Shown in pieces: positions 41,503 through 62,740 of a stretch of 64,000 nt of DNA. Source of the DNA: Candidatus Latescibacterota bacterium (lineage in GTDB: Bacteria; Latescibacterota; UBA2968; UBA8231). The stretch is taken from NCBI GenBank assembly GCA_965219385.1, contig CBDCNM010000002.1, forward strand, positions 1,668,936-1,732,935. The letters are read 5' to 3'. The stretch's first letter is position 1. Each line of letters opens with the position of its first letter. The notes beneath the pieces are model-generated. The model made no database searches and was not told the origin of the DNA. It saw only the letters and a program-made list of their open reading frames with translations. A program made the position numbers and the translations under genes.

Positions 41503-41913
41503 TCACTGTTTGAACTGCCAGCGTTTGATGTCGTCAAATCGGTCAAAGTCCTTATCAAATGTCGCCACATGGTCGCCGGATGCCGCAGCGAGGGCAGCCA
41601 AGTAACAATCCAGAAAGTCGCATTTTGTCGACGCCAAGCGATGCAAAGCGTCGAGCATTTCATCTTGCTTCATACAGCGTACACCGGCACTAATGATGAC
41701 CTTCCGCAGCCATTCTGCAATCTGTTCGCGCTCGGTCTGGTAGAAGGAATTGAGCACCCACACCACTTCGGCAACAGCCACTTCGGTTAATATCAGCACA
41801 CATTTTCCATCGCAAGCGTCCGAAAATAGTGCCCGAGCAGCCGGGGAGTGCTGGGCATCGTCGCCGCGTAGAAAACGGAGGAGGACATTGGCGTCTAAAA
41901 GATACTTGATCAT
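41503..41913 (-). CDS. vapC: PIN-domain toxin (VapC family)
   Basis: 'LLDANVLLR', 'VAEVVWVL', 'DFLDCYL', 'TFDKDF'. Confidence 0.9.
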   Translation of the reverse strand: MIKYLLDANVLLRFLRGDDAQHSPAARALFSDACDGKCVLILTEVAVAEVVWVLNSFYQTEREQIAEWLRKVIISAGVRCMKQDEMLDALHRLASTKCDFLDCYLAALAAASGDHVATFDKDFDRFDDIKRWQFKQ

Positions 41914-42152
41914 TCGTATCTGGCCGCTCTTGCCTTGCGTGCTGCTTCTCGTTCCTCGGATTTGGACGCAGAGGGCTTGTCATCTGCAAGACAGCCATAC
42001 AGATCCTTGAGCGTTTCGGGCTGGGGCTTCACCAAAACGGCACCGTCAGCCAACTCATAGATGAGCTGCTGCCGAGGCTTGAGGTGGAGCGCCTTGCGGA
42101 CTTCGGCCGGGATGGTGGTTTGCCATTTATCGGTTAAAGTTGACTTGATCAC
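41910..42152 (-). CDS. vapB: AbrB/MazE-type antitoxin (VapB)
   Basis: 'STLT.K.QTTIP.EVRKALHL.P...L.Y'. RBS AAGGAGG. Stop overlaps the vapC start. Confidence 0.88.
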   Translation of the reverse strand: MIKSTLTDKWQTTIPAEVRKALHLKPRQQLIYELADGAVLVKPQPETLKDLYGCLADDKPSASKSEEREAARKARAARYE

Positions 42153-42185
42153 TGGTCCACCTCCTTTTCATTGTTTTTATGAATC

Positions 42186-42222
42186 CATTGTGTTAAATAT
42201 AACAATGTAAATCCGGTCCGCA
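42186..42222 (-). promoter_or_regulatory. vapBC promoter with overlapping inverted-repeat operator
   Basis: Minus strand TTGCGG-16 bp-TATATT with an extended TG. The CATTGT...ACAATG inverted repeat (42186-42207) spans the -10. Confidence 0.45.
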
Positions 42223-42236
42223 AGGCATCAACAAGC

Positions 42237-42506
42237 TCAACGATACACTTCACTCCTGTGGCCAATCTTCACAATGAGGATGAGAAGGGCATCGTCCTTG
42301 ATGTGGCTGATTACGCGATAAGCGCCCACGCGGTATTTCCAGAACTCGCCTAACTTGGAACCCTTGAGGGCTTCGCCAATGCTGCGCGGATCGTCCAGCC
42401 TAGCAACACGGTCATGCAAAAATCTCAGAATCCGCCTTGCTGCCTGTCGATCTATTCTTCTCAATTCACGCTCGGCGTCCCTGGCAAGCTCAATCTGCCA
42501 GGCCAT
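42237..42506 (-). CDS. relE: RelE/ParE family toxin
   Basis: 'AERELRRID.....RI..FL..R.....DPRSIGEALKG...GEFWKYRVG.YR.I......LI.IVKIGHRSEVYR'. Confidence 0.93.
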   Translation of the reverse strand: MAWQIELARDAERELRRIDRQAARRILRFLHDRVARLDDPRSIGEALKGSKLGEFWKYRVGAYRVISHIKDDALLILIVKIGHRSEVYR

Positions 42507-42720
42507 GCTCATTCATGACTTTCTCAAGAGGCACGGTCTGAGATTTCCCTTCGTGAATATCCTTCAGTCGTTGTTCGGCAAGATGCAAGTCTTCGAGGTC
42601 GTCCAGATACTCTCGGATAGCCTCAATCATATATTCGGTTTCGCTGCGTCCCGTGCGGGCAGCCAGTTTTTGTAGCCGTTCAAAAACTGTATCGGGCAAC
42701 TGAAAAGCTACTCGGCTCAT
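42490..42720 (-). CDS. Ribbon-helix-helix antitoxin (RelB/CopG-like)
   Basis: 'LP..V.ERL..LA.RTGRS...Y..EAI.EYLDDLEDL.LAE.RL.....G...TVPL..V'. Overlaps relE. Confidence 0.88.
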   Translation of the reverse strand: MSRVAFQLPDTVFERLQKLAARTGRSETEYMIEAIREYLDDLEDLHLAEQRLKDIHEGKSQTVPLEKVMNEHGLAD

Positions 42721-42974: not shown

Positions 42975-43244
42975 TCATAGCTCCTGCTCGGAGCGGTCAC
43001 GAGGTTTCGCTTGGCCGAGCACCAGCGGGTAAAGGCGGGCCGGGGCGACCGTCACACCCTCGATGCGGTTGGAGGATTCAGTGCTCTGAATGATGGCCGT
43101 GTCGCGGAGCGCTTTGAGGGCTTGTGGCGACTGGCGTGTGAATAGCTCCTGTTTTCCCCTCGACTCGGCGATATCGTTGAGCAGCCACACCGTACTCAGA
43201 GGTATTTCATGGTCGCGCAGGCGGTTGTTGCGAAAAGAATTCAT
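42975..43244 (-). pseudogene. Fic family protein, N-terminal fragment only
   Basis: 'IAE.RGKQELF..QSP..L..L...A.IQSTESSNRIEG.......L..L......PR.RSEQE'. Stops before the HPFxDGNGR motif. Confidence 0.8.
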
Positions 43245-44854
43245 GAACGGTTTGCTCTAAGATCCTTTGACCAAGTATGCCGAACAAACTCATCTGGATC
43301 AGATAGAAGCGCGAACAGATAAACTGTAGCCAGATCAGGGAGGACATTGCTTACTTCGCATGAATGAATGGCTAGAAGACACTCATATGTGTGGCCCATC
43401 ATCCGATAGCCATGCAATGAATTACGTATCCCATGAACTAGCTCTGCCGTGAAATCTTCAAACGTATTCCGGGGGTCGCGATCAACGTACTTGCCTGAAG
43501 CCTTGTCGAATCTCTTGAGCTGAATCAGTTCTCGATCCTGGTCTAACCGATCCTTACTCCAAACTCCCTCCACTGCCTGTTGGACAGTGCGATCGTAGAT
43601 CTCTTCGCCTCTTGCGACTATGTAGGTGCGGAATCGACTGGGCATATGGGCCATTAGCGGTTCGAGACGACCTTTGAAGTGGGACTTCTTGAGCAGGCGG
43701 AGGTAAGTCCTTTCGCGCTTTCCGAGATCAACTTTCTTGGCACTGAGAGTCGCGTACTTATCCAATATGTCAAAGAAGAGTTGTTTTCGCACATAGGTGT
43801 CCTGCTCTGTGTTAACCGTGATTGTCTCTGAAACGATCCGGTCGATGGTGAGATAGAACTGTCTTTGTTTGATGAAATCTATCGATTTGTCGTCTTTCAA
43901 GAATAAAATCGGATTGATGAGCGATAGGTAGAGTGCGTTGATTCTTTCTACTGTCCACTCGACAAGCTTATCTATGTCTTCGCCGCGCCATCGCGTCACA
44001 TGTCGGAGGCGGGTGTCTTCCAACTTAGTCCTTAGGTCCTGCTCATTGGCTGTCATGTCCTGTATAGTCAAATGTGGCTCTAGCATCCTCTTTGCTCGGA
44101 GTACGTCGTCCAGCAGCGACCGCATCGTGGCCTTTTCGCGAATTTTCAGCACAGGGTGACACTGGAAGACGAGTAAGAAGCTGAACCGCTCGGCCACAAA
44201 GCCATACACGTTGGGATGAAACCCATTGAGCACGGCCCGTAGGACATTGCCGCCTAACCCTAGTCTACTTCCTTGCCCTGCGGCAATGCTCCGACGCTTG
44301 TTCCTTCTGATTTCTGGTATGGAGTACACCCCTGAAATGCCTATCAAGTCGATTGCCTGCAGAAGAGTCCCGAGTCCTTCATTAATCCGAATAATGTGAA
44401 TCCGGCCTTTCGGATATGCTGCCAGAAAGGCTGGAACAACTATTTTTCGCAACAGCGGCACGTAGTCCGAGTGACTCGTACGGAACAGAAGACTATCGAT
44501 CCAAAAGAGTTTCTTGTAGCCTCTAGTCTTTTCGATAGTTTCCTTATAGGAGTCACTATTGTACGAAAGCACCTGTGGACGGGCTTTCTCAAGATCCCAC
44601 CAATAACCATCTAACGATGAGAAGATGTTGATATCGTGCATGTTGGCCGCTGTGATGGACCCTGAGTAAACGAACACTCCCTGTTGTCGGACAGAGTCCT
44701 TCAGTTTTACCCAAACACTCGTACTATCTTCATGGAAATCGTATAGACCTGTCTTCGCTAGCTCCATCTTGAATCCCTCAATGGCCCACGTTGCAGGATG
44801 CACCAGTCGGCCGTATCCCATGTCGGCCCACGTTGCCGAAATGATTCCGGTCAC
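43241..44854 (-). CDS. Hypothetical protein with C-terminal HEPN-like helical region (start uncertain)
   Basis: 537-aa AT-richer ORF in the defence island, with 'IRNSLHGY' near the C-terminus. Confidence 0.65.
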   Translation of the reverse strand: MTGIISATWADMGYGRLVHPATWAIEGFKMELAKTGLYDFHEDSTSVWVKLKDSVRQQGVFVYSGSITAANMHDINIFSSLDGYWWDLEKARPQVLSYNSDSYKETIEKTRGYKKLFWIDSLLFRTSHSDYVPLLRKIVVPAFLAAYPKGRIHIIRINEGLGTLLQAIDLIGISGVYSIPEIRRNKRRSIAAGQGSRLGLGGNVLRAVLNGFHPNVYGFVAERFSFLLVFQCHPVLKIREKATMRSLLDDVLRAKRMLEPHLTIQDMTANEQDLRTKLEDTRLRHVTRWRGEDIDKLVEWTVERINALYLSLINPILFLKDDKSIDFIKQRQFYLTIDRIVSETITVNTEQDTYVRKQLFFDILDKYATLSAKKVDLGKRERTYLRLLKKSHFKGRLEPLMAHMPSRFRTYIVARGEEIYDRTVQQAVEGVWSKDRLDQDRELIQLKRFDKASGKYVDRDPRNTFEDFTAELVHGIRNSLHGYRMMGHTYECLLAIHSCEVSNVLPDLATVYLFALLSDPDEFVRHTWSKDLRANRS

Positions 44855-44939: not shown

Positions 44940-46148
44940 TTACTCAGGGAGTGGACAGATTCCATTTACTTCAAGAATTGAAGACTCAACATTCGTATAA
45001 ATCTGGCGACGGCTACCTTTAAAACTGATCTGTAGCTGATTTAGCTCCAGAAGTTCCAAATCTAATTTGAGTATATCTTCCACCGTATTTGAAAGTTTCA
45101 AGTAGAGAACTGAAGTCAAACGAGCAAACTTCTTGAATCTCTCCACTGTTTGCCCAAAAGATCGATAGATATCCAAAATTGGTGATTCTTGTATTTGTAG
45201 TCCAGGCCCATATGTTGAACCTCCGTGAGAAATAAAAGATTCTAGCAAGGAGTTATCTGTGAGCCCTGCAAAACCTGATTGATTTTGAAAAATTTTTTCA
45301 TTAAGTAAGATCCTCCTTGCACGAATTTCGGCAATCTGATCCGATGAAATATTATTGAATGATACATTATCAAAGGGGCCGAAATTTTGTTTGTTGTCTT
45401 CTTCCGTTAGAACAATTTTCCAAACAGTTTGAGATCCAGATGTAGCTTGAGTAGCATCCTTTGGTCTTACCCACGCAGCATCTTCCTTGTGTGCAAAGGC
45501 AATAATTTTTCCCTGAGTAAATTGATTACTGATACTATTCCTTAATGAATGGAGAAAGGTAGTTTCTTCGGATGATTCTGGGAGAAGATCAAGATTAATT
45601 TCTGTCGGACTCCAGTGTGCATTTTGTGCAGGAATGAAATACGATTTTCCATCCTCCAGATGCAATAGTATAAATTCGCCATAATCGCTCTTGACCTCGG
45701 TGGAAGTTGATATATCAGGCGACGTTACCTGCGATGTATCTCCCGATAGCTTGTAGACTAAAGCCTGATAAATTTCTTCAATTTTCATTGAACGCAAATC
45801 AAGATATCCGACTGTCCGCAAAATTCCCGGAATCTCTGTATCATCAAGACGGACTGGAAGAATATACTCCTTATTTTCCTCAAATGCCCTTGCCTGAGCA
45901 TTCTGTCGTTCATGGTTCGTCCACAACTTCCGTATATAGTTTTCGGATAGGAACATGACACAATAACGTGCCTGATCCTTGTAAACTGATGAAAAGTGAT
46001 CATAGAGATTCTTGCCCCAAAGTTTCGCTGGCTCATATTCATCATAGAAGACTAAATATTCTCCTTTTTTGAGAAGATCTGCTAGCTCCTTGGCATGTTG
46101 TCGATCTTCTCCCGCGAAAGACAAGACAACATCATACTCTTTGGACAT
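44940..46148 (-). CDS. TIR domain-containing protein with unknown C-terminal domain
   Basis: 'YDVVLSFAGEDR', 'VFYDE......WG..L', 'MFLSENY..K.WT.HE' (catalytic Glu position), 'ILPVRLD'. Confidence 0.9.
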   Translation of the reverse strand: MSKEYDVVLSFAGEDRQHAKELADLLKKGEYLVFYDEYEPAKLWGKNLYDHFSSVYKDQARYCVMFLSENYIRKLWTNHERQNAQARAFEENKEYILPVRLDDTEIPGILRTVGYLDLRSMKIEEIYQALVYKLSGDTSQVTSPDISTSTEVKSDYGEFILLHLEDGKSYFIPAQNAHWSPTEINLDLLPESSEETTFLHSLRNSISNQFTQGKIIAFAHKEDAAWVRPKDATQATSGSQTVWKIVLTEEDNKQNFGPFDNVSFNNISSDQIAEIRARRILLNEKIFQNQSGFAGLTDNSLLESFISHGGSTYGPGLQIQESPILDIYRSFGQTVERFKKFARLTSVLYLKLSNTVEDILKLDLELLELNQLQISFKGSRRQIYTNVESSILEVNGICPLPE

Positions 46149-46224
46149 TTCTCAAACACTCCTTCACTATGTTTTGAAATTTTGGCTGCGTAATCAGCGG
46201 CTTTAACCTGAGTTCATCTAAAGA

Positions 46225-46401
46225 TTAGTCCCCTTTCAAACGAGTGGATTCCTCCATCTTCTCTATCTCTTCCTCCGTCAGCCCATACAGCGCATACACC
46301 AACCGGTCTATCTCCGCTTCCTGCTCACCGGTGTCCGCCAACGGGTCGGCCGCTTTGGCCGTCAGAATGCGGTCAACCAAGCGGATGGACGAGTTCCTCA
46401 T
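46225..46401 (-). repeat. Orphan copy A of the RM/MTase gene 3' end (58-aa ORF MRNSS-IRLVDRILTAK...YGLTEEEIEKMEESTRLKGD)
   Basis: 103/114 nt identical, by hand alignment, to the gene's own tail at ~49128-49241. Confidence 0.9.
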
Positions 46402-46410
46402 CTGCCAACC

Positions 46411-46563
46411 CTACCGCCCTTCCACCGCTGCGGTCTCTTCCTCCAGCCCATACAGCGCATAGACCAGCCGGTCTATCTCCGCTTCCTGCTCGCCGGTGCC
46501 CGCCGACGGGTCGGCGACTTTGGCCGTCAGGATGCGGTCAATCAAGTGGATGAATGGTTGCAA
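46411..46563 (-). repeat. Orphan copy B of the RM/MTase gene 3' end (QPFIHLIDRILTAK...YGLEEETAAVEGR*)
   Basis: 99/111 nt identical, by hand alignment, to the gene's own tail at ~49134-49244. Confidence 0.9.
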
Positions 46564-46654
46564 TGCCTGACGGCTTCTAAATCGGTTGACGCTTGGTCAT
46601 TTCATCGTAAGTTACACAAGCCTACTTACACCTCGTAACTCGTAATCCCGTTTA

Positions 46655-47080
46655 TCATTGGACGAAAGATCGGTGTTCTTCAGGTCTGACGTATCGCCAG
46701 GACTGAGGGACGACGAAATTCGGGAATTGGTTCCTTAGCTCGTTCAGACCAACTGGGTTTTCGTATTTCCAAACATTCGTGATTTCCAAAGCATAAGCAA
46801 TGGTCCGCCCCGCATAATAGATGTCAAAAGCCCGTTTATCAACGCCCGCAAGTTCGGACACCTCATTCCAAACTTCCTCGGGCGATCCACTCCACACCTG
46901 TCCGACACGAAAACCGCCACGGAGTTGCCTGACCGGACTGGAAACGTAGATAAACACGTCGCGATTCTCCATATATGGAGTGATGCGCCTTCTTAGTTCA
47001 GCCTCCTTGAGCCCCTCAAAAACTAGGTCCGCATAGCAGGGTTTCAATGAAAAGAGTAAAGGTGCCGTTGCCGCGTTCAT
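46655..47080 (-). CDS. ASCH/PUA domain protein
   Basis: 'LFSLKP.YA.LVF.G.K.AELRR', 'IY.SSP.....G.F.V', 'PQSWRY'. Start overlaps the upstream stop. Confidence 0.88.
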   Translation of the reverse strand: MNAATAPLLFSLKPCYADLVFEGLKEAELRRRITPYMENRDVFIYVSSPVRQLRGGFRVGQVWSGSPEEVWNEVSELAGVDKRAFDIYYAGRTIAYALEITNVWKYENPVGLNELRNQFPNFVVPQSWRYVRPEEHRSFVQ

Positions 47081-49092
47081 GACTGATCCGGGTATCCAAG
47101 TCGAAATAGTTTCCGGAATATTTTCATTGGTACATTTGATGGAGATTGCAGCGTTAGCCCAACTTCATCCTCCCTGAAGACATCTCGCAGCTTATCCAAC
47201 CAAACCGGATCTCGAAAAAGGAACGTGTGCGAAAATCTCAGTGCCATAATCTCTTTTGATAGATCACCACCACACAGGTCATAAACGTCTTTCCATTCCA
47301 GTATCCCAAATTTTTTGAATTTCTTGAAAAGCACTTTTGGAGTGTCTATCTCAACGGCGTCAAGATGGGATATAGCTACAATTTTTTTTCGGTCTCCGCT
47401 GACGTACCACAGAATCCGGGCAGGTGTCTTGAGCATATTATGGCGAGTTTTACGTCGATAATACACGTTATCCCAACGCAACAATACACTCTTCTTACCT
47501 CCGAAGAAATCGTTGGCCGATTGGTATCTATCAAAGAGGCTGATGGCGTAGCCTGGAAGAATTGGTATCAAAAAATAATCCTGGTCCACTGCCAAGCTCA
47601 AAGGTGAGCAATGTCGTTCAATCTCAAGACTCGACATATTCTGATAATTGCTTGAGGATTCAGGAGATAACTCGGAAATCTCACCTGAGACCTCTTCACG
47701 ATCAAGGCAACGCGAAAAGCAAAATCTCACGAAACTATCGTTACATTTTGTAAATCCCATCTCTAAAAGGTCCGTCACCAATCTGGCGGCGATGGCGGTT
47801 CCCTCGAATTTCACCATGTCAATGTTCTCGCTTACAGCTTTGTAAACAGTATCCGCGATCAAAAAGCGCTCGAATAGCAATCGGTCATTGGATCGCACGA
47901 CCCTACCCAAATGTACAGTAAGTGCGTTATCGTTACTATTTTCAAGAATTCGAACCGCGCATACCTCGCTGCCTGACCATAGAAGCTCGCACTCATACTG
48001 ATCAGGACTTGCAAGAAAATACTCCACCCTCTCCCGGAATTTACCTTGCCTTTCCCCTTGGTATAGGAAAGAGGCAAACGGGAAAGATGGGAGGTCACCG
48101 GAGGTCAGGCGACGCCATTCAAGACTGAAGCCCGACACGCGGGCGGGCACATAGGATTGTCTTTCGGAAATTTCGTGAAATTGAATGATCAACTCGGTCG
48201 GAGATAACACTTGAATCCTCGTCAGATCCACAATTGCATCTGCATTTTGTAAGAGGCGTCGGTCCCGAGTGACAAAAAAATTCACGTCGGAGGCAGCAGT
48301 CTTCGCCAATTGCCGAATATCGGATTTTTCACGCGGCATGCGGCTGGGAAGAATTTCCTTCAGATGTTCCTCAAAGTGTTCAGCCAATTGTGCGTCGTGT
48401 ACGATTTTTTGAAATCTGTAGGCTCTGTTTCGGGATTTTTCGCGCTGAACGGGATCGCTTTGCCGGTCAATTTCATTAAACAGTTCATCAGTGATACAAA
48501 TGTTGAGGGAATCTATTAAGAAGTCGGAGAGCAGAGCTTTGGATGGCTTTGATTTATCACTATCCGGCTCATTAAAATCGAAGAAGACTTGGGCATCTAT
48601 GATGATATCGAGAGTCTCATCTGATGTTTTTGCCTGAAAAAGGTCTAACTGGTCATCTGGGGCCAGAGTAAGGCACCAGAGCGTCAGAGGGAGTCCATCC
48701 TTGGATCTACCTGGCTTCTCATCTAAGGCCACGAACCCCAATTGGGGCCACATGTCATGCGCCGAAAAATCGCGGCGGCAATGAAGTTTTATGGCCTTCT
48801 GAGTAGTGGCAGACTCCTTTAAGGTGTTAACAAGTCGCCTTGCGATACTTTGGTGTTGGTATTGTTCCAACACGCAAAGTTGGAAAATACGAAAATAGTT
48901 TCGATTAGCTCCATAGAGGAGATAACCGATGAGTTGGTCGTCGTCGTTCTTGGCCCCCCAAACGCCGCCTTTTTCGAGATAATCACGAAGGGCTTCTCTG
49001 GGAAGAAAACCAAGCGTCTGACTGTAACGTTTCATCAGCTCGTCCACATCATCAATGTCAGCGGACGTTAGCTTTGGGATTGTTATATCCAT
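47077..49092 (-). CDS. GNAT-PIN-PUA(EVE/ASCH-like) multidomain protein
   Basis: N-terminal GNAT ('LIGYLLY', 'QLCV...Q.Q.IARRL', 'W..LGF'), PIN ('IIIDAQVF', 'E', 'SD...L', 'FVTRD') and C-terminal PUA-like ('IPI.PGYA..LF', 'VYYR', 'PARILWYVS'). Confidence 0.78.
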   Translation of the reverse strand: MDITIPKLTSADIDDVDELMKRYSQTLGFLPREALRDYLEKGGVWGAKNDDDQLIGYLLYGANRNYFRIFQLCVLEQYQHQSIARRLVNTLKESATTQKAIKLHCRRDFSAHDMWPQLGFVALDEKPGRSKDGLPLTLWCLTLAPDDQLDLFQAKTSDETLDIIIDAQVFFDFNEPDSDKSKPSKALLSDFLIDSLNICITDELFNEIDRQSDPVQREKSRNRAYRFQKIVHDAQLAEHFEEHLKEILPSRMPREKSDIRQLAKTAASDVNFFVTRDRRLLQNADAIVDLTRIQVLSPTELIIQFHEISERQSYVPARVSGFSLEWRRLTSGDLPSFPFASFLYQGERQGKFRERVEYFLASPDQYECELLWSGSEVCAVRILENSNDNALTVHLGRVVRSNDRLLFERFLIADTVYKAVSENIDMVKFEGTAIAARLVTDLLEMGFTKCNDSFVRFCFSRCLDREEVSGEISELSPESSSNYQNMSSLEIERHCSPLSLAVDQDYFLIPILPGYAISLFDRYQSANDFFGGKKSVLLRWDNVYYRRKTRHNMLKTPARILWYVSGDRKKIVAISHLDAVEIDTPKVLFKKFKKFGILEWKDVYDLCGGDLSKEIMALRFSHTFLFRDPVWLDKLRDVFREDEVGLTLQSPSNVPMKIFRKLFRLGYPDQS

Positions 49093-49094
49093 AC

Positions 49095-52000
49095 CTAACT
49101 TTTTTCTCCAATCAACGCAATTTCCTGCTCGGTCAAGCCGTACAGCGCATACACCAGCCGATCTATCTCCGCTTCCTGCTCGCCGGTGTCCACCGACGGG
49201 TCGGTCGCTTTGGCCGTCAGGATGCGGTCAACCAAGCGGATGAACGGGCGTTGCTCTGTGGCGGGGATTTTGGGGATGGGCAGGCGTTCGATGAACATCG
49301 GCTTGTATTCGTAATAGCCCCCGTCTCTTTCCACGCCAATCAGCCGAAAGTACCAATCTAGTAGCTTTGAGTTGAGTGCTGCCAATAGATAATGATTGAA
49401 TGGCGTCAAGATCGTAGTAGGCGCGCTCACGAACATATCTTGAGGCGCGTAAGAAAACTTGGCCTGATTAGATAAGTTGCCCCACGCAATTTTTTCTTTG
49501 GCGAAATCTTCGTGGTAGTTAGCCCCCCACCGCTGGAGAGCATACCATTCGTACCGAATTCCGGTTTCCGATTTACTTCTAGAGCTCAGGCCGGACTTAT
49601 GTGAAAGTAGATGCCGATAAATCGCCGGATATTGTCCCTTGAACAAATCCTCTGCCTGACTACTGCTTCCCTTGATTGCTGAATCCAAATGTAATGGAAA
49701 ATGCCAAGGGATATTGATCAGCCACAAGCCGGCCCATTTTACCCGGTAGCGCTGTATATCCTGCCCGCGCAACACCGGCTTGATGATGTCCGCGGAGTTG
49801 AGGTCTTCCCCAATCAACGCCTCTTTGATCGCATCGTCAATGATGAAGGCATCATTGCAACCAGTGATGATCCCACGATTGATCTTCACACTCCAATTTT
49901 TCAGCGGCGTTCCGACGGCTTCCATCTTTTCTTTTATACACTGTTTCGTCCCTGACAATACAATCCAAGTATTGCCGCTTTTAGGGCGAATACGCGTCCA
50001 TTCAGTTGGCGGAAATTGCTGTGTCGCTGAACGCATATCGGACGCTTGCAGCACGTTCTCGTTGGATGACCGATTGACGATCAGGATGCAGGTATTGACC
50101 GTTGCATTGTCAAACACATCTGCGCCAAGGTTGACCAGCCGTATCGGATTTTGATTTTCGATGAACTGTCGCAAGATCCGCCCGCTGTCAACGCGCATCC
50201 ACTGATTGGACGATATAAAGCAAACATACCCGGTACGCTGTTTCAGCAGATTCACCCCCTTCTCGTAGAAAAGCTGGTAAATATCGCCGGTGCGGGCGAA
50301 AGTTGCGTAGCCGGTATCCTTGTAGAGGTTGCCCAGTTCGCCGCCGTTCTTCTGCAACTGAATGTACGGCGGATTCCCAATCACCACATCAAACCCATCG
50401 GCGACCCCAAACATATACTCAGCGTCAAAATACTCAGCCTTAGCATTCTGATCGTAAGGGTTCCAGCGAGCAATTTTGTCCGCAGCGGCAGCAGGCATCC
50501 CAATCTGCCTCAGTTCCCCCGCCAAAGCATCCCGTAGTTCCTCATCTCTCGCACGGCATCGCAGTTTTGCCTGGCGATTGGTCGCGTGAAAGTGCCGCTC
50601 GCGGTTCGCGTGCAATTTGTGCTCCAGCCCTTGCACTTTCTCGCTGCTCAACATGCGCTCGCCGAGACCGAGCAAGGTGTTCGCTGCCACAAACCGAGTT
50701 TCCAAGTTGGGTAGCGGCTGGATGCCGAAATTGTCGTCTTTGTTGCCGTTGGGTTCCTGCTCAATCGCGAGCGAAATGAAGAAGCGCAGCTTGGCAATCT
50801 GGCAAGCGATGGGCTGAATGTCCACGCCAAAAATGCTGTTCTGAACAAGGTACAGCTTGCGCCCAAAATCCGAGTCGCGGTAGCGCTCAAATGTCTCGCT
50901 GATCTCCTTCAGTTCGGCGTCTCGTTCCCGTTGATTATGGGTATCAAAAGCAGCAGTAGCACGTTGCCCGGCCAGTTCCTTTTGCAGCCCCTCCCACCGC
51001 TTGTTCTCCGGGTCGAGGCGGCGCAGAGCCAGCGTCAGCTTGTGTAGCGCACCCATGGGGAAGGCACCAGAGCCGACGGCCGGGTCGAGAATTTTGATCT
51101 CAGCGATGGCGCGCACCAAGCCGTCAGTTTCGTCCTCGTCAAAGAGTTCGTTCGCTTCGTCAAAGGCGTCCTCGTAGTCCAACAGATAATGGAGCCGGTC
51201 CCGCCAAGATGCGCTGTCGCCATCCGCCGGTCGGCTTTTGGACGCCAACGTCTCCACCGCTGCCTCGTCCACCATGTAGTCCACCACGGCGCGGGGCGTG
51301 TAGTAGGAGCCGGTTTGCTTACGCGCCGTCTCGCGCGTCTCCGGGTTGTAAGCCGCCAGCAAGTTCTCAAAGACCTTGCCGAGTAGTTCCGGGTCCAGGG
51401 CGACTTCCTTCTCTATGGGCGTGTTTTCCTCCACCGTGAACTTGTAGTGGTTGAGCAGAGTAATCAGCCCGTCGTCATCGAAGAACAGGTGGTTGGGAAC
51501 GCTCAAGTTTTTGTAATGCACATCGGAAAAACAATCGATGCGCCAGCCGCCATAGCCGGTGGCCTCCTCGCTGTCCAGGCAATCGAACAGGCCGCCGTTG
51601 ATGAACGGCGTTTGGGCGAACAGGTCCAGCAGCGCGTCCGGGTTGCTGATTTCCCGTTTGTAGCGATACAGCGAAAAATTTCGGTGCGTGGCGTTTTGCG
51701 CTTTGCTGAAACCGCGCTTGTTGATCTCGGTGTTCAGGGTGGCGAAGAACAGGTTTTGCAGGACGGCGCGGTAGTAGGAATCGCCGCTATCCCGGTCGTA
51801 GTTTTTTAACAGGTCAGCAACTTGCGCCTCGATGAATAGGTCGCCGACAATCAGCCCCTTCTCCTTGATGAACCAGACGAACAGCAGGCGGGTGATGAGG
51901 CGGATGACGTGCTCTTCGGCGGGCAGGGTCCGGGCTTGATCGGTGGGAAACCGGGCCTCTTTGACGGCGCGGTCGAACCAGACGAACAAATCCTGGTAGA

Positions 52001-52721
52001 ACCGCCGGTTGAGTTCCTCGGTGTCCAGTTTGTCCAACCAGGCGGCCAGCAGGCCGTCAAAATTGTGCGGCCTATTGCGGATGTCCATCCATTTCGCGCA
52101 CTCGGTCAGCGACAGCTCGGCCAAAATGTCCAGATGGGCGCGGTGGGGATTGGCCGGGTCAATCTCCCGTATCAGCGACACACGGCCCAGCACATCGCGC
52201 TCCGGGTCGTGCTTGTGCTCGCGGCGATGCACAAAGGCCAGGGTGAGCAGGTTGTCGGCAGTTTTGAACAGAACGACCGTAGGTTGGCTCAGGCGCTTGT
52301 TGATCTCGCGGGTGAATTGGGCGTACTGGCCGCGAGCATAGGTTGCTTCCTTGAGTTCCACGGCGAAGAAGATAAAGCTCTGCTGCTGTCCCTTGTCGAA
52401 GGAAGCGGTCTCAAACCCAAGCGTCGGCTGATCGAATGAGGCGATTTCGTCGTCGGTAAGCTGAAAGACGAACTGCACGGATCGGACGTTTTCGCGGAAT
52501 ACCTGCTCTGTCCTGGTGTTTTCTTTTGGGGCGGGAAACTGCGCAATGAAATCGGCAACAGCGCCCGTCTGTCCAGGCAGGGTGCGCTCGCTGCGGTAGC
52601 CGAGAGTGGCCAGCAGGTCTTTGGTCGCCTCCAAGAAATCGCTGGCTGGCATCGCTGCCAAAGTGGATTGCAGGGCCTCCAGCAGATTGTCAGTGCTCAT
52701 ATCCTCTTTTACGCTGCCCAT
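49095..52721 (-). CDS. Type IIG/Eco57I-like N6-adenine DNA methyltransferase with TaqI-like target recognition domain
   Basis: 'PFINGGLF', 'DPELLGKVFENLL', 'TGSYYTP', motif I 'LDPAVGSGAF', motif IV 'IGNPPY', TRD 'KPVLRG.DI.RY', 'LNSKL..W', 'IDRLVY.LYGLT'. Confidence 0.9.
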   Translation of the reverse strand: MGSVKEDMSTDNLLEALQSTLAAMPASDFLEATKDLLATLGYRSERTLPGQTGAVADFIAQFPAPKENTRTEQVFRENVRSVQFVFQLTDDEIASFDQPTLGFETASFDKGQQQSFIFFAVELKEATYARGQYAQFTREINKRLSQPTVVLFKTADNLLTLAFVHRREHKHDPERDVLGRVSLIREIDPANPHRAHLDILAELSLTECAKWMDIRNRPHNFDGLLAAWLDKLDTEELNRRFYQDLFVWFDRAVKEARFPTDQARTLPAEEHVIRLITRLLFVWFIKEKGLIVGDLFIEAQVADLLKNYDRDSGDSYYRAVLQNLFFATLNTEINKRGFSKAQNATHRNFSLYRYKREISNPDALLDLFAQTPFINGGLFDCLDSEEATGYGGWRIDCFSDVHYKNLSVPNHLFFDDDGLITLLNHYKFTVEENTPIEKEVALDPELLGKVFENLLAAYNPETRETARKQTGSYYTPRAVVDYMVDEAAVETLASKSRPADGDSASWRDRLHYLLDYEDAFDEANELFDEDETDGLVRAIAEIKILDPAVGSGAFPMGALHKLTLALRRLDPENKRWEGLQKELAGQRATAAFDTHNQRERDAELKEISETFERYRDSDFGRKLYLVQNSIFGVDIQPIACQIAKLRFFISLAIEQEPNGNKDDNFGIQPLPNLETRFVAANTLLGLGERMLSSEKVQGLEHKLHANRERHFHATNRQAKLRCRARDEELRDALAGELRQIGMPAAAADKIARWNPYDQNAKAEYFDAEYMFGVADGFDVVIGNPPYIQLQKNGGELGNLYKDTGYATFARTGDIYQLFYEKGVNLLKQRTGYVCFISSNQWMRVDSGRILRQFIENQNPIRLVNLGADVFDNATVNTCILIVNRSSNENVLQASDMRSATQQFPPTEWTRIRPKSGNTWIVLSGTKQCIKEKMEAVGTPLKNWSVKINRGIITGCNDAFIIDDAIKEALIGEDLNSADIIKPVLRGQDIQRYRVKWAGLWLINIPWHFPLHLDSAIKGSSSQAEDLFKGQYPAIYRHLLSHKSGLSSRSKSETGIRYEWYALQRWGANYHEDFAKEKIAWGNLSNQAKFSYAPQDMFVSAPTTILTPFNHYLLAALNSKLLDWYFRLIGVERDGGYYEYKPMFIERLPIPKIPATEQRPFIRLVDRILTAKATDPSVDTGEQEAEIDRLVYALYGLTEQEIALIGEKS

Positions 52722-52759: not shown

Positions 52760-53770
52760 TCACGCGTCCCCGAGATTGATTCTTTGTACGATCTTCTTCG
52801 CCAAATCCCTGAAATCCCGGCGCGCGTCGTTTGCCGCGGCGGCATGGCTGCCAATGGCGCCGTCGGCTGTGGTGAGGTGGAAAATGGGCTTGCGCGCTTC
52901 CTGAGCCATCGGCACCAAGCTCCGGTAGTGCTTAACGGTGGCGAGGGCATGTTCTTCATCCTGTGCCGGTGTCGCGGGGTACGGTCCTTCGTTATCGCCG
53001 CACAGGTTGCGGGCGTATTCTTCCGGCATTCGATTGACCCACTTGTCATACGCCCTGACGGGACGGTTCAGGCGGACGCCGTGCTGTTGCACCACATAGC
53101 CGACGGGTTGCATCTCCCCATCCGGCAGTGGAAAGTCCGGTTGCTCCCAGTTGCCCCTTCGCCGCTGCCAGTCTTGCCGCCACCGATCCAGCGTCGGGCC
53201 GAGGTTGCGCAGGCCCTGGAGCGAAAACAGGTCGGCGCCCAGCGGAACGATGATGTAATCGGTGGCAATCAGCGCGGAGCGATTAATCGCACCGAGATTG
53301 GGGCCGACGTCGGCCAGGATGACCGAGGCATTCATCTTGGCGGCCCCAGACTGCATGACGGTCGAAAAGGCGGTCAAAATGCGGAAGGGGCGGTACAGCT
53401 CGCTAGAACCCAATGCGTTAGGCCATTCTGACGACAGAGTATCTTCAAATCCGGCCAGGGCCAGATCTCCCGGTATCAGGCACAGCGTAGGGGTAATTTT
53501 CGCGAGCCTCGGGTCTTTGATGTCGCCAACTTTTGTCAGAGGCCGGACGCATTGCAGGATAGTCCGCGCAGATGCATCATTGCCGTCGTCCCACAGCTTT
53601 TCCAACTGTTCTTCATTCAGAAATGCAGCGGTGAGGCTCGCCTGCGGGTCGAGGTCGCAGGCCAGCACCCGATAACCACTGTCGGACAGCATCCACGCCA
53701 GATGATAGACAAGCGAGGTCTTGCCGACCCCCCCCTTGTTGTTGAAGAAAGTCAAAACGGGAACGGTCAT
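52760..53770 (-). CDS. ParA/Soj family ATPase (defence-island type)
   Basis: Deviant Walker A 'FFNNKGGVGKT', 'DLDPQA', 'D.GPNLGAINRSAL'. Confidence 0.9.
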   Translation of the reverse strand: MTVPVLTFFNNKGGVGKTSLVYHLAWMLSDSGYRVLACDLDPQASLTAAFLNEEQLEKLWDDGNDASARTILQCVRPLTKVGDIKDPRLAKITPTLCLIPGDLALAGFEDTLSSEWPNALGSSELYRPFRILTAFSTVMQSGAAKMNASVILADVGPNLGAINRSALIATDYIIVPLGADLFSLQGLRNLGPTLDRWRQDWQRRRGNWEQPDFPLPDGEMQPVGYVVQQHGVRLNRPVRAYDKWVNRMPEEYARNLCGDNEGPYPATPAQDEEHALATVKHYRSLVPMAQEARKPIFHLTTADGAIGSHAAAANDARRDFRDLAKKIVQRINLGDA

Positions 53771-54769
53771 TATTCTGCTCCCCCCGGGTTTTGCCTAACC
53801 TTTATCGTTACCACCACGAAATTATCGGAAATATCAAATTCAGGTTCTGGATGTCCCGCGGCCGCTAGCTGCTGTTTGGCTATTGGTATTCCTACGCCAA
53901 AACGCTGGACATATCCCAGCGTTCTCATGGATTCTGCCAGGTTGGGGTTGCGGTAATCAGTATATCCGGGCTGACCGAAATTCTCAGCATTTACCGTCCC
54001 GAACGCACCGCCGGGGCTCAGGACCTCAATGCGGTCATTGAACCAAGTGATGCGGACGGGAGTATTGGTTCCTTCATAAGTCCTGTGCATCACTGCGTTG
54101 CGGGTGATCTGGTGCAGCGCTTCCATGGGATACAGCTCAGTTCGTTGTTCAATGTAGTTCGTTGTGATATCCACAGCGATGCGATTGTGGGCTTTCAGTT
54201 TCTCATCCAGACGGCGGAGCAGGTCCGGAATGGCGCCGCCGATTTCCTCGCTGTCAAGAATATCATCCGTTAGCTCGCGGCCATTAATTTTGAGGAATTG
54301 CACATAAGCACCTGGCAGAAAATCCTGCGGGTTTTTGCCGATCGTGAGTATGCCCAGCACGGTCGCGGTGGGCTGGTCAGCGGCGACGATCATTTTTGTC
54401 GCTGCCAGTTGCTCATTCAGGCTGCGGTCGTTTACTGCCAGTACCTCATCCGGAAATGCTGCGGTTAAGTATTCGTTCTCAAACCGGGTCAGATTGAGGT
54501 CGGACAAGCCAGCGGTCGGGATTGGCTGGATGTCAAAGGGGCGGTCGCCGTGCCGTCGCTTTTCGTTGAGCATCCTTTCATCCTGTGCCGTGGCGATGCC
54601 GCGGCGAGGGCCGATGCGGACATGGATGACACCTTTGCAGCGAACCGGTGGCGAGTTGGAGGGTTGCACTATGATCACCGCAACTTCCTTGCCTTGCAGC
54701 CTGCGCTTCTCCACCGTCAGTGAGGGCGGAGGTACGATATTGCCGTCGGTCTTCTGTAAAATCTGGCAT
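53770..54769 (-). pseudogene. AlbA_2/Schlafen-like plus HATPase_c_4 'ATP-binding' protein with N-terminal deletion
   Basis: 'YP.EAL.Q...NAVMHRTY', 'DRIEV.SPGG', 'YRNPNLAE....LGYVQRFGVGI'. The apparent start MPDFTE (54769) is out of frame with the following KTDGNIVPPP, and most of the AlbA domain is missing. Confidence 0.7.
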
Positions 54770-54799: not shown

Positions 54800-57700
54800 T
54801 CAGCCTGTGCGTTCAAGCACAACGAGCCAGGTTACCAGCTCAAAATCGTTGTTGTTCGGGTTGGCGGATTGTACGGGCAGCCTGAAGTCGCGCTGGTGGC
54901 CGTGAATGCCCAGTTGCCGTATCTGCGTGGCTCTGTCCGCCCCGACGATGTGGGCAATCACGGCGTTCAATAGTTTGTCGTAACGGGCCATGTCCTGGCC
55001 GTGCTTGGTTTCGTGGTCAAACTGGTCGCATAGCTTTTGCAACGGCTCGGTCTTGCCGAGGGCCGCCGATTCAAACAACTCCAGCACCTGCCGGGCATTG
55101 GCACAACCGTAGCGAATATCGCCGTTGTCGCGGATGTACACCGCATAGTACGGATGTATCGGGCTGGCGGCTTTTTCCCGCTTATCTGCGCCGGCGTTGC
55201 GCTGGCGCAGGAAAAATATCGCGCCCGGCCGTGCGGCACCGTCGGTTACTGCGTAGGCCCCGTAGGGCGTTGCCTCCAGTTCCGCCTTATTTTTCTCCAG
55301 ATACCGCAACAATTGGGCAAAAAAGTAATCGAGCGTAAAGTCGCTCATGACGACGCCGTCGGACAGTTCGTCCAGGTCCAGCACCTCTTCGCGCATTTTC
55401 TTTAGTTGCTCGTCGCGGAAGTTCAGCTCCATCTGGACCTGCTCAGACGGGTCTTCGTTCAACGGATCGTCGTCGCCGCTGGCCGTGGCGTCCGCCAGGG
55501 CCATGCGCGCTTGTACGCGGCTTTGCAGGCGCAGATAGACCTCCATGTCCTTGGTGGGCCAGTAGTTGATCATCCGCACCGATTCGCTGCGGCTGCCGAT
55601 GCGGTCAATGCGCCCGAAGCGCTGGATGATACGCACCGGATTCCAGTGGATGTCGTAGTTGAGTACGGTATCGCAATCCTGAAGGTTCTGCCCCTCTGAG
55701 ATGCAATCGGTGGCAATCAGCAGGTCGATTTCGTCGGTGCTATTGGTCTGCACGCGTGCCCGCGGCGCGAAGTTGGTCAGAATGGCGTTGAAGTTGTTGG
55801 CACCGGAAGTTGTGCGCGTTGCGTCCCCAGAGACCAGCGCCATGTTCAGCCCCAGTTCGTTCGCCAAGTCCGCCAGGTTTTCGTAGAGGTATTCCGCCGT
55901 GTCCTTGAAGGTGGTAAACACCAGCAGCTTGCGGTTGGTCCGGCCGTCCTTGTCGGTCGTCGGGTGTTGTGCCTTGTCTCGAATGTGCGCCTTGATCTCT
56001 CGCAGCTTGCCGTCCCGCTCCGGCGTGATAATGCTGACCCGTTTATGGACCGCCTCCAAGGTCTTCTCGTCCTTCAGCAAGTCCTTTTTCCAGCGGGGCA
56101 AATCCAACTCGCGCAGATGGTAGGGGGTGCGTGCCCGATTGATCAGAAATTCCTCGTCATCGTCGTCGTCATCCGGGAGGATGTCCGCTTGCTCGTCCAA
56201 CAGCAGGTTTTGCTCATAGCGGTCTATCTTCTCTAGCAGGTCTTTAATCTTGCCGATAGTGCGCCCGAGCGTTTCTGTCAGGGAATGGGCCGAACTCTCC
56301 AGGCGTTTCAGAAAATTGACCCGTATCATGCCGATGAGGAAGCGCTCGCGATCTGCCTGATTAAAGCGTAGTTGCTTCTTTTCGTCCGCCAACCGTTTCT
56401 TGGCATCTGCGCTGGTAACGTAGCTTGACGGCCGGTAGATGGATAGGGCGAACTGCTCGATTTGTTCGGATAAATTTTTATATGAAAGTTCGTCCTCTAA
56501 ATCCGTCAGCGGATAGCGGTTCTCCGGCCGTTGCCGCGTGGGGAATTGGCCGATTTTGTCCATTTCTTCGGCGTAGAATCGCTTGATCTGCCGCCGCGAG
56601 CGAGCAATGGAAACACCGCCTAACAGCTTAGAAAAATCAGCGCCCAATTCCTCCAGTAATGTTGCCTTGTCTTTTCTGCCGCTCCTTTCCGCTTTGGTCT
56701 CCCATGCCTTAAACTCCTTTTGCGCCTGCCCCAGGAGAGAGCCGATATGGCCGATACCCAGATTTTCCTGGAACACATCCTCGCGCTTTTCGGTCATCAG
56801 ATAAATCTGATTGCGCAGGTCAATAAGCGAGGTATTGACCGGCGTCGCCGAAAGCATCAGCACCTTGGTTTGGGTCCCGGCTTGGATGACTTCTTCCAAT
56901 AACCGCGAGTAGCGGCTGTGGCGAACTCTGCCGTCGTCGTCGAGGCGGGGCTTGGAGTCATTGCGGAAATTGTGCGATTCGTCGATGACCACCATGTCAA
57001 AATTGCGCCAGTTGAAATTTGCCAGATCAATATCGCCGGCTTGCCCACTGCTGCGGGACAAGTCAGTGTGCGATAGCAAGGTGTAGCCAAAACGGTCATC
57101 AAGGAAGGGATTGCCAGTTTGGGCATTATAGGCTGGATACAGCGCCCAGTTTTCGTGCAATTTCTTGGGGCACAACACCAGCACCCGCTCGTTTTTCAGT
57201 TCAAAGAACTTGATAACCGCCAACGCCGTGTAGGTTTTCCCCAACCCCACGCTGTCGGCCAAAATGCAGCCGTTGTGCCGCAGCAGGCGGGCGATCGCGC
57301 TTTTGGCACCGTCTCTCTGGAAGCCGTACAGCGCGTCCCATATTTGGGTATCGTACAGGTGCGTATCCGCCAGTTGGCGTTCGCGGTTCTGTCGGTCTTC
57401 GATGTCCTGGCGGAACAGCTCGTAGAGGGTTTTGTAATAGATGAACTCCGGCGCGTGATCTTTGCCTATCCGCGCCAGCGCGTCGAGCACGTCCTTTTTC
57501 ACATCCTTGGTCAACGCCTTGTCCGCCCACAGGTCGTCAAACCACTCCCGCAGCTCGGCGCGTATTCCCAACTCGCCAGTCGCCAAGTTGATTTCCACGT
57601 TGGCACTCGTCCCGCAGCCCAAGCCGCTTCTGGTGAAGTTGGAGCTACCGACCACCACCGCGCCACCGCCGGCGGATTCGGCGAGATACATCTTGCCGTG

Positions 57701-58057
57701 CAGAAAGTTGGATTTGCCAATGGAACGGACTTTTACGCCCTGGCCGCACACCCATTCGGCGCACTGCCGCGCGAGATATTTCTGTTGCAACTGGTAATTC
57801 GGCGAAAGCCCGTCTTCGGTCAGGTCAAAGGATTTTTGCGCTTTCTCTCCGGGATCCAACTCGCCGACCGATGCCGGGTCGCCAAAGAGAAAGCGCACAT
57901 CCTCAACGCCGCACAATTCGCTTTGCAGGGCCTCGTACCCGTAAATGGTGAAATACGCCGACACCAAACGGAAAACCTCTGCCGTGGACAAATGCTCGCG
58001 CAGATAGTCGACGACCTTGCAGTCGCGATTGTCCAGAATGTGTTCGTATTTGGCCAT
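54800..58057 (-). CDS. PLD-nuclease / SNF2-family helicase fusion
   Basis: PLD 'LHGKMY...GSSNFT..GL...N.E.N', Walker A 'LADSVGLGKT', 'IDESHNFRN', 'LSATP', 'SEGQNLQ', 'QRFGRIDRIG'. Confidence 0.93.
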   Translation of the reverse strand: MAKYEHILDNRDCKVVDYLREHLSTAEVFRLVSAYFTIYGYEALQSELCGVEDVRFLFGDPASVGELDPGEKAQKSFDLTEDGLSPNYQLQQKYLARQCAEWVCGQGVKVRSIGKSNFLHGKMYLAESAGGGAVVVGSSNFTRSGLGCGTSANVEINLATGELGIRAELREWFDDLWADKALTKDVKKDVLDALARIGKDHAPEFIYYKTLYELFRQDIEDRQNRERQLADTHLYDTQIWDALYGFQRDGAKSAIARLLRHNGCILADSVGLGKTYTALAVIKFFELKNERVLVLCPKKLHENWALYPAYNAQTGNPFLDDRFGYTLLSHTDLSRSSGQAGDIDLANFNWRNFDMVVIDESHNFRNDSKPRLDDDGRVRHSRYSRLLEEVIQAGTQTKVLMLSATPVNTSLIDLRNQIYLMTEKREDVFQENLGIGHIGSLLGQAQKEFKAWETKAERSGRKDKATLLEELGADFSKLLGGVSIARSRRQIKRFYAEEMDKIGQFPTRQRPENRYPLTDLEDELSYKNLSEQIEQFALSIYRPSSYVTSADAKKRLADEKKQLRFNQADRERFLIGMIRVNFLKRLESSAHSLTETLGRTIGKIKDLLEKIDRYEQNLLLDEQADILPDDDDDDEEFLINRARTPYHLRELDLPRWKKDLLKDEKTLEAVHKRVSIITPERDGKLREIKAHIRDKAQHPTTDKDGRTNRKLLVFTTFKDTAEYLYENLADLANELGLNMALVSGDATRTTSGANNFNAILTNFAPRARVQTNSTDEIDLLIATDCISEGQNLQDCDTVLNYDIHWNPVRIIQRFGRIDRIGSRSESVRMINYWPTKDMEVYLRLQSRVQARMALADATASGDDDPLNEDPSEQVQMELNFRDEQLKKMREEVLDLDELSDGVVMSDFTLDYFFAQLLRYLEKNKAELEATPYGAYAVTDGAARPGAIFFLRQRNAGADKREKAASPIHPYYAVYIRDNGDIRYGCANARQVLELFESAALGKTEPLQKLCDQFDHETKHGQDMARYDKLLNAVIAHIVGADRATQIRQLGIHGHQRDFRLPVQSANPNNNDFELVTWLVVLERTG

Positions 58058-61609: not shown

Positions 61610-62740
61610 TCATTCCTCGATCAACTCGACATTGGCCCGGGGCACCACGGCCCGGGCACCGTCCTCGAACTCCACCTCCAGGACCCGCACCTGGGCGCCC
61701 GACGCCACCTCCTGGAGCTCGGAAGGCAGGGCGCTGACGCGGCCGATGCAGCCGAAATAGGGGGCGCGGATGACCCGCAGGACATCGCCTGTTTCCAGGC
61801 CTTGCTGCTGCTGGGGCGCGGGGTGTTCGTCGGCCCGTGGGGGCTCGTCCTGGAGCGGCACGATGATTTCGGGGCGCAAAACCCCGGCGCGAATCTGGGT
61901 GGCCCCGGAGATGGAGGCCTCTTTGCCGGAGCAGGCCTGGAGAATCTCGAAGGTCTTGCGGGCCATGGCGATTTCGCCGAAGCCCTCGGTGACGATCAGG
62001 CTCAGCCCGATCTCTTCGGTGCCGGTGATGGCCACGCCCAAGTCGTAGCCCAGAAGGTCGCGCAAATCCTGGTCGCGGATGCCGCCCCCGATCACCCCTA
62101 TGGCCCCTGCCTGGCGGGCTTGCTGGACGGCCTGCTGGGTGATCAGGCTGCCGCCCACCAGGATTTTGCCGGCGCACTCGGGGCCGATTCTTGCCGCCTC
62201 CAGGGCATCTTCGGGGTGGGCGGCGAGCAGGTGGAGTGGGCCCCAGCACTCGCCGCCCACCCCGAAGATGCCCTGCACAAAGGCGGCGCGGGTTTCGATC
62301 CGCACTCCTTCTTCGGGGAGGACTTCCACCACGGTGCCGTCTATGTAGGCCAGGACCTCGACCGGCCGGGGCGGCTCCCTCAGAATCACCTGGCCGGTCA
62401 CCGCCGAGATGCTTTCGACGCTGCCGCTCACCGGCGCCTCCACCGTGGTCTTGAACCACTTGATGAAGGGGCGGGTCTGGGCTATGGGCTCGCCGGCCTG
62501 GATGGCTTCGCCCTCCTTCTTGAGCATGTAGCCGGGCAACTCTTCGGGGGTGACGCCCAGGCGGTTCACCAGGTTCAGGGTGGTCACGTTGCCCGGCAAT
62601 TCGGTCCGGGCCACCACCTGGTCGCGCCGCACCCGGGCGCCCGGTTCGACCAGAACCTGGCCCCGGAGGGGAAGTTGCCGTTGCTTGGTGCGGGTGGCCT
62701 GGGGGGTCACCCGCAGGCCGGGGGTGTAGGCGTGGGCCAT
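61610..62740 (-). CDS. Barrel-sandwich-hybrid / KOW-containing conserved protein
   Basis: 'MAHAYTPGL.V', 'G.VLV..G..V', 'APVSG.VE.IS..TG', 'TEGFG..AM', KOW-like 'GD.LRVIR.PYFG.IG.V'. Confidence 0.75.
   Translation of the reverse strand: MAHAYTPGLRVTPQATRTKQRQLPLRGQVLVEPGARVRRDQVVARTELPGNVTTLNLVNRLGVTPEELPGYMLKKEGEAIQAGEPIAQTRPFIKWFKTTVEAPVSGSVESISAVTGQVILREPPRPVEVLAYIDGTVVEVLPEEGVRIETRAAFVQGIFGVGGECWGPLHLLAAHPEDALEAARIGPECAGKILVGGSLITQQAVQQARQAGAIGVIGGGIRDQDLRDLLGYDLGVAITGTEEIGLSLIVTEGFGEIAMARKTFEILQACSGKEASISGATQIRAGVLRPEIIVPLQDEPPRADEHPAPQQQQGLETGDVLRVIRAPYFGCIGRVSALPSELQEVASGAQVRVLEVEFEDGARAVVPRANVELIEE

Follow-up and report, generated by a model that had tools for sequence, protein, structure and literature searches.

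Defence islands pile up genes beside restriction-modification (RM) systems. In integrons and in integrase-less attC clusters, the newest module lies nearest the upstream gene and repeats separate units of a single module. Here we describe an island in a 64,000-nt stretch of contig CBDCNM010000002.1 from a Candidatus Latescibacterota bacterium (the window, meaning this whole stretch), in which the last 36-42 codons of a type IIG-like RM gene occur three times in the same direction on the minus strand. Tail A is the end of the live gene. Tails B and C are orphan relics that lie downstream, between a first cargo module (a GNAT-PIN gene and its ASCH-type partner) and a second one (a TIR gene and orf537). 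As in integrons, the module that we infer to be newest stands nearest the upstream gene, and repeats separate single-module units; unlike integrons, the locus has no IntI, no attC-like hairpin and, with relic borders that vary among related loci, probably no fixed crossover, and its repeats are coding sequence.

Four published systems offer further comparison. In rhs arrays, for which integration of circles has been proposed to supply the tips, variable-length fragments of a conserved gene region follow the intact gene in the same direction, among low-GC genes, and older ends are shunted downstream without a recombinase (Jackson et al., 2009; PMC2935791). The window resembles them in all these layout features. 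In rhs, however, the variable tip follows the conserved core in the same protein and can re-fuse, whereas the conserved piece of the RM gene is its very end, the variable part lies upstream, and the stacked genes are separate and unrelated to the RM protein. For the sequential displacement seen in Vibrio effector-immunity arrays of type VI secretion (T6SS), two routes have been proposed, frequent replacement and rare homology-facilitated illegitimate addition (Kirchberger et al., 2017; PMC5361080). There, too, clean replacement is common, additive one-anchor events are rare and an integron-like order arises without an integrase, but a working immunity gene is kept, where the window keeps a gene-end relic and unrelated candidate anti-phage cargo. 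When RM systems insert with long target duplication, the insert is < 20 kb, lacks a mobile-element gene and lies between direct repeats of > 30 bp (Furuta et al., 2010; PMC2853133); the window has 110-nt repeats around a 2.5-kb block. In those insertions the RM genes are the insert; here the RM end is the repeat, the GNAT-PIN gene and its partner are the insert, and the repeats differ by 10% and have different ends. Finally, Cj0031-like type II RM genes that neighbour PLD-SNF helicases have been described to undergo programmed inversions (Milman et al., 2023; PMC9881135). The window likewise has a PLD-SNF helicase upstream of its RM gene, and 9 of 56 related loci have an inverted second gene end; the window copies, in contrast, are direct and without specificity region and therefore cannot switch specificity by inversion. 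Collectively, the locus works like a displacement array that lacks one defining feature of rhs arrays (the re-fusable tip), one of long target duplication and two of integrons.

Gene-end repeats and single-cargo alleles

The earlier note, made from the letters of the window, had reported three direct tail copies with stops of their own and spacings of 2, 9 and 76 nt to the next start, and our alignments and the list of open reading frames (ORFs) bore this out. Tails A (49247-49138) and B (46557-46448) were 90.0% identical over 110 nt, A (49246-49120) and C (46391-46265) 88.2% over 127 nt, and B and C 89.3% over 122 nt, with E ~1e-36 to 1e-40 in a search space of the whole 5.8-Mb genome; the longest exact matches among the three were 27, 21 and 24 nt. 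The genome scan that the note had proposed returned no fourth copy in these 5.8 Mb by blastn or tblastn. The stop of A ends at 49095, 2 nt from the GNAT ATG at 49092; that of B ends at 46411, 9 nt from the next ATG at 46401; and that of C ends at 46225, 76 nt from the TIR ATG at 46148. Only 7-15 residues lie between YGL and the stop, and the cargo is encoded by separate ORFs. The 2-nt gap between the stop of tail A and the GNAT ATG suggests that RM gene and GNAT-PIN gene may be cotranscribed.

The three tails were 89-91% identical to each other versus 69-84% to eight other tails. In 22 aligned gene ends, sequences were divergent upstream of PIPK and alike downstream of it, and the tail is a conserved block 3′ of a variable specificity region. 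The drop in similarity after YGL that the earlier note had seen is present but not special, since the ends of related genes diverge likewise: the 42 nt 3′ of YGL in A, B and C were just 29-67% identical to the ends of 13 such genes, and the drop is normal for this RM gene family. The tails contain 57-65% guanine plus cytosine (GC) in surrounding cargo of 39-50%. Tail A has 61% versus 49% in the 600 nt upstream, and a GC step of 3-19 points up at the tail, relative to the region upstream, was found in all eight loci checked.

Tail B has six private differences; because four of these change residues, and two of the residues changed do not vary in 13 relatives, it looks dead or decaying. Behind it, the 58-codon ATG frame that the earlier note had called a collapsed ATG stub is tail C itself and no collapsed cargo gene, its ATG probably deriving from a 2-nt-shifted remnant of the tail start. 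Both relics start within ~20 nt of each other. Codon-position differences among A, B and C were too few for a selection test. With the tail as query, solved structures gave weak matches (best E 0.005), phage records none, and plasmid records three, with one place in each. A scan of metagenomes yielded one locus.

The evidence for how two modules came to stand in series lies in relatives, which carry them singly. Among the 167 other genomes of the phylum, seven have a homologue of the GNAT-PIN gene. G154 and G108 (81% and 77% protein identity, respectively) have it directly behind a full tail, and G106 has it behind an RM gene that ends in a different way. It follows a possible 7-8-codon tail vestige in G046, G039 and G051 (one genus, suggestive only) and no tail-like sequence in G165. 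A tail after the GNAT-PIN-ASCH module was found in none of the seven. The TIR gene had any match in 20 of 168 genomes, and a full-length gene was present in seven others: G147 has it directly after the tail (83%), five have it within 1.6-5.1 kb of the RM end, and in G103 it lies close to where the contig stops. In four genomes (L152-L154, L151) the GNAT-PIN module has no RM gene nearby; in three of them, the last codons of the tail may persist as a vestige.

G154 reads RM gene, tail, GNAT-PIN, ASCH and anchor. It is 83.6% identical to window 49280-46619, a match that begins at the first base of the tail and ends just past ASCH, and then continues with an 89-codon ORF. G147 reads RM gene, tail, TIR, orf537 and anchor, with 84.6% identity to window 46167-42981. 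Neither has an orphan tail. Compared with each other, G154 and G147 aligned as far as the middle of the specificity region, then had only the tail in common (75%), and realigned exactly at the start of the 89-codon ORF; they are alleles of a single host site. In the window the two cargo sets follow one another, and the two relics lie at the seam between them. Because relatives carry each module singly at the same site, the two modules were likely stacked by ordinary recombination and not by an integron-like enzyme. That cargo varies right behind the tail had been anticipated by the earlier note, and holds with single modules behind RM ends in G154 and G108 (cargo 1) and G147 (cargo 2). The alignments support the view that the gene end is a recurrent joint between a variable specificity region upstream and variable cargo downstream.

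At the seam, ~90 nt after ASCH are common to the window, G108 and G106 up to ~46569, where the window enters tail B. Since the G108 and G106 flank runs on without a tail past this point, the left edge of B is probably a non-homologous joint. There is homology on one side (the RM gene) and none on the other, where the flank stops at tail B, which is the pattern of homology-facilitated illegitimate recombination. The 42 nt after YGL in tail A were closest, of 15 ends, to those of the GNAT-linked G108 (67%) and G154 (60%, tied with G125); the core of A, unlike its end, was closest to B and C (89-91%).

Short-read contigs confirmed the layout. Contigs came from four of six runs (X1, X3, X5 and X6) and from two studies, X3 being the second; one bridging run may be the window's own source. 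Contigs with zero differences spanned the junction of the tail A stop and the GNAT gene (48979-49182; X5, X6), that of ASCH and B (46472-46889; X3, also X6) and that of B, C and the spacer (46126-46807 in X1, 46126-46492 in X5). Because exact contigs from two studies bridge these three junctions, the layout is real and the assembly artefact that the earlier note had allowed for is ruled out. In X6 most of orf537 was uncovered and cover was thin at the junction of tail C and the TIR gene, a gap in cover to which we give no weight. X5 also held a variant of the tail C end, spacer and TIR start, with 17 differences and two gaps in 201 nt and 255 other letters upstream.

The joint expected from excision by a tail-to-tail crossover was found neither among the three joints listed for X5 and X6 nor among 15 listed of 87 joints, from contigs that drop rare variants. 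Two candidates were rejected. An X5 contig that might have been a hybrid has its 34 unmatched letters at the 49913 end and not at the tail, and a joint from 46379 to 49260 (X5, X6) has a side of 21 nt and 25 foreign letters and more likely represents another organism's intact gene. The excision between repeats that the earlier note had envisaged thus went unseen among the joints listed for these two runs, and tail B looks dead.

Relics in related loci

To place the window among its relatives we scanned 87 loci, from which three duplicates had first been removed; 60 had a methyltransferase core followed by a tail, and 56 of these had at least 3 kb downstream. The loci were drawn from tail-bearing queries or cargo matches, and the counts are not population frequencies. 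Relics on the same strand downstream of the gene were found in 10 of the 56 loci, in keeping with the earlier idea that older cargo is pushed downstream, and upstream relics in none. When the window and three loci chosen as orphan-like were left out, 7 of 52 had relics. Downstream copies of six internal 57-residue blocks of the gene were found in 0 of 56 loci, while the blocks were detected in 47-55 of the main genes. The locus L058, outside the filter, has three relics. The pattern of tail relics is real and recurrent.

The left borders of the relics ranged from about -178 to -18 nt over seven loci. Relics were 34-194 nt long and 86-99% identical to the local gene, except for one of ~280 nt in L019; the shortest, of 34 nt, is in L058. 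The first relic in L019 contains ~40 codons of a specificity allele unlike that of the live gene and is therefore a displaced allele end, not a local copy. Before or between relics lie an Avs2-like gene (954.7 bits, below the cut-off of 1000), TIR, FRG-TPR, DUF2806 and DUF559 genes and a ParE toxin gene, and the taxa scanned include Caldilineaceae, Dehalococcoidia, Latescibacterota and Saprospiraceae.

A different arrangement, absent from the window, was seen in 9 of the 56 loci (L026, L097, L146, L148, L156-L160): some 65-190 nt behind the RM gene its end is present once more, inverted and convergent, in frames of ~250-270 codons. These silent cassettes likely form an invertible specificity switch; in L026, a tyrosine integrase stands next to the cassette. 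Other variants were observed in passing. In L029 (3714-13117), L031, L022, L024, L025 and L059 the RM tail extends into an extra segment, which resembles an antitoxin end; in L029 a ParE-family toxin gene follows it, and the relics have a start of their own behind a repeated 112-nt element. A separate copy of the RM N-terminal region, of ~330 codons, lies between helicase and RM gene in L101 (14995-15975), L103 (4470-5450) and L160 (2861-3841). In L091 (10038-10151; genome G030) the RM gene that precedes the tail relic has a C-terminus of another type, and L090 (7898-9071; G115) has tail relics twice directly behind a ParA-like gene, the RM gene apparently missing there.

Routes to the stacked state

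We favour, at a probability of roughly 0.6, a capture of cargo that is anchored by homology in the RM gene and closed by an illegitimate far end near the old tail, which pushes old tail and cargo downstream. Incoming linear DNA bearing another allele's end plus cargo would recombine by homology in the RM gene, and in the same event its far end would be joined, with no long homology, close to where the old tail starts. The orphan tails would then be leftover 3′ ends of RM alleles. In the usual case, as between G154 and G147, a double crossover would swap the block that runs from the specificity region's second half to the anchor and leave no relic; in the rarer case, twice in the window, only the upstream crossover would have been homologous and old tail and cargo were retained. 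The commonest state, the 46 of 56 loci without a relic, fits replacement between two anchors, one upstream in the RM gene and one downstream, for example the 89-codon ORF. For the window, a plausible order is a G147-like allele of RM gene, tail C, TIR and orf537; then arrival of allele end B, cargo-less or losing its cargo later; then arrival of tail A with GNAT-PIN, ASCH and the ~90-nt flank. No dedicated recombinase would be necessary, and the relics would need no function. Because the cargo is tail-flanked in no relative seen, the stacked state needs an extra non-homologous joint. Short microhomology at the joint is typical of homology-facilitated illegitimate recombination, and illegitimate joining has a bias towards GC-rich microhomology.

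Several points weigh against this capture. Tail C is not specially near the G147 tail (78%), and its end is tied between G147 and G108. The relatives are 16-25% diverged and none is of the same species, so that neither the joint nor any microhomology can be placed to the base. The arrangements of L029 and L031 are the same, and the scores of three relic loci out of ten are as low as 18-19 bits. Moreover, an upstream anchor permits joints across the specificity region of ~1.1 kb, yet no relic extends as far as the GIITG block and nearly all are shorter than ~200 nt; a bias of the joints by the tail's GC step may be the cause.

Short relics that begin in or near the tail are better explained by the circle route modelled for rhs tips (PMC2935791), in which an excised circle of tail fragment and cargo enters another cell's tail by a single crossover, so that the tail is duplicated each time and tail-flanked cargo recycles. 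The GNAT-PIN-ASCH block does now lie between repeats of 90% identity, and an X5 contig ties a tail-C-like stretch to a GNAT-like start (side of 40, letters between them unread), a weak hint that probably comes from a different organism. The relatives, however, offer no tail-flanked donor: a downstream tail was found in 0 of 7 with cargo 1, and the first circle would therefore still need an illegitimate joint. Exact matches between the tails are just 21-27 nt, and the joints listed for X5 and X6 include none from tail to tail. We consider this route unlikely. Quite unlikely is its wider form, in which RM tails are a maintained, enzyme-free cassette currency, with tail-bracketed cargo excising as circles and re-integrating behind related RM genes across phyla as an integrase-free counterpart of the integron for anti-phage genes. 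The ready-made cassettes of tail plus cargo at a reusable att-like site that the earlier note proposed find little room beside tail-less module ends in all seven relatives, varying borders, the short exact matches and 46 relic-free loci of 56.

If unequal crossover had instead stacked whole units of RM gene and cargo, and erosion from the 5′ side had then consumed the redundant genes but spared the last codons by the cargo start, the graded relic lengths would follow, from ~280 nt in L019 to 34 nt in L058 and to the possible vestige in G046, G039 and G051 (suggestive only), as would the decay of tail B. Intermediates are missing, however, since none of the 56 loci has a downstream copy of any of the six internal blocks, and B and C would require two separate multi-kb deletions ending within ~20 nt of each other, yet are 91% identical. 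Such erosion is very unlikely. An integron-like site-specific system, with a recombinase encoded elsewhere that uses the tail as its att site, could account for the closely matched starts of the window's two relics; the genome has ten tyrosine-recombinase matches and one resolvase match, and L026 has its integrase beside the RM gene, though by the inverted cassette. The check for a trans-acting recombinase gave a best match to the integron integrase model TIGR02249 of 124.8 bits against a cut-off of 265, in a genome that is 94% complete, and the tails share no hairpin (coding-strand z -1.4 for A, -3.0 for B and -1.3 for C; the folds differ and only B beats shuffles). With left borders that vary from -178 to -18 nt among loci and relics in just 10 of 56, we regard the integron-like array of the earlier note as extremely improbable.

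The island and the use of its relics

Table 1. Parts of the island in the order of the minus strand (positions in the window).
Feature	Position	Strand	Basis
PLD-SNF2 helicase, first gene of the island	54800..58057	-	Pfam PLDc_2, SNF2-rel_dom, Helicase_C; PADLOC C3a139 HKD+Snf2, E 2.5e-112; 87-90% DNA identity to G147, G154
Gene pair between helicase and RM gene: RecG-C-terminal-like (HATPase_c_4), ParA-like ATPase	52760..54714	-	Pfam PF13749, PF13614
Type IIG-like RM gene: Eco57I-like adenine methyltransferase fused to a specificity region; putative start ~52721	49095..52721	-	Pfam Eco57I, E 7.6e-35, TaqI_C; PADLOC REase_MTase_IIG, E 1.1e-120
Tail A, conserved end of the live gene (~60 codons, from PIPK to the stop)	49095..49280	-	G154 identity begins here and continues through cargo
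GNAT-PIN-like gene, 671 aa, cargo 1; candidate defence system, PDC-M11A-like	47077..49092	-	Pfam GNAT; PADLOC PDC-M11A, E 1.5e-19
Partner of cargo 1, 141 aa, PDC-M11B-like	46655..47080	-	PADLOC PDC-M11B, E 1.5e-30; behind GNAT-PIN in 7/7 relatives
3′ flank of cargo 1, ending at the putative illegitimate joint with tail B (~46569-46560)	46564..46654	-	Common to G108, G106 up to ~46569
Tail B, orphan relic, own decayed end, no cargo of its own	46411..46563	-	A and B 90% identical over 110 nt
Tail C, orphan relic at the head of the TIR module; contains 58-codon ATG frame	46225..46405	-	A and C 88% identical over 127 nt
TIR-domain gene, 402 aa, cargo 2	44940..46148	-	Pfam TIR_2, E 5.7e-19; 83% protein identity to G147 gene; GC 39%
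orf537, unannotated, candidate partner of the TIR protein (cargo 2)	43241..44854	-	77% to same-place gene in G147
89-codon conserved ORF, downstream anchor where G154 and G147 alleles rejoin	42975..43244	-	90-94% protein identity in G154, G147, G103, G106, G148
Two toxin-antitoxin pairs (RHH-ParE, PrlF/AbrB-PIN), close of the island	41503-42720	-	

The RM gene encodes adenine methyltransferase and specificity region in one polypeptide, as in type IIG enzymes; a nuclease domain had no match in the protein in Pfam, NCBIfam or solved structures, and the upstream helicase bears a PLD domain. The pair of RecG-C-terminal-like and ParA-like genes also precedes the RM gene in G052, G150 and G047. The 141-aa partner of cargo 1, without a Pfam match, we take to be an ASCH/PUA protein, the label given to it by the earlier note; the 89-codon anchor, which matches no family, is presumably Fic-N-terminal-like. 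For orf537 there was no match in Pfam, PADLOC or NCBIfam, and its resemblance to unnamed atlas clusters (0.91) is weak. Pieces of the two toxin-antitoxin pairs recur downstream in G108, G103, G106 and L011. Between 44800 and 49400, sigma-70-like promoters (4 versus 6.4) and terminators (5 versus 4.4) were at chance level, and no Rfam match was found between 41000 and 58500.

The host site of the island is empty in G000 (C2:240335-240501, compared with L103, L165 and L166), and the helicase is 87-90% identical to those of G147 and G154 where host genes are mostly 65-80%; because of both, the whole island likely moves horizontally. It contains no integrase. The window as a whole has no tyrosine or serine recombinase, as the earlier note had said of integrases; the genome's ten PF00589 matches and one PF00239 match all lie elsewhere. 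An IS-type DDE transposase gene is present in the window at 35049-36503, and a perfect 27-nt inverted repeat with a 21-nt loop at 62201-62275.

A description of RM-gene tails as cargo borders was not found in the literature searched, with subscription papers and supplements outside its scope. To the systems compared above, the window adds a pair of single-cargo alleles beside the stacked form, plus a bare 3′ joint. Gene addition without integrase or transposase is seldom visible; here both single-cargo alleles are at hand for comparison with the stacked form. Tail relics also offer an inexpensive means of marking module borders, and genes between relics (Avs2-like, TIR, FRG-TPR, DUF2806 and orf537) are therefore candidates for defence tests without the help of annotation. 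The locus also allows a direct test of additive capture by rare illegitimate joining against recycling through circles.

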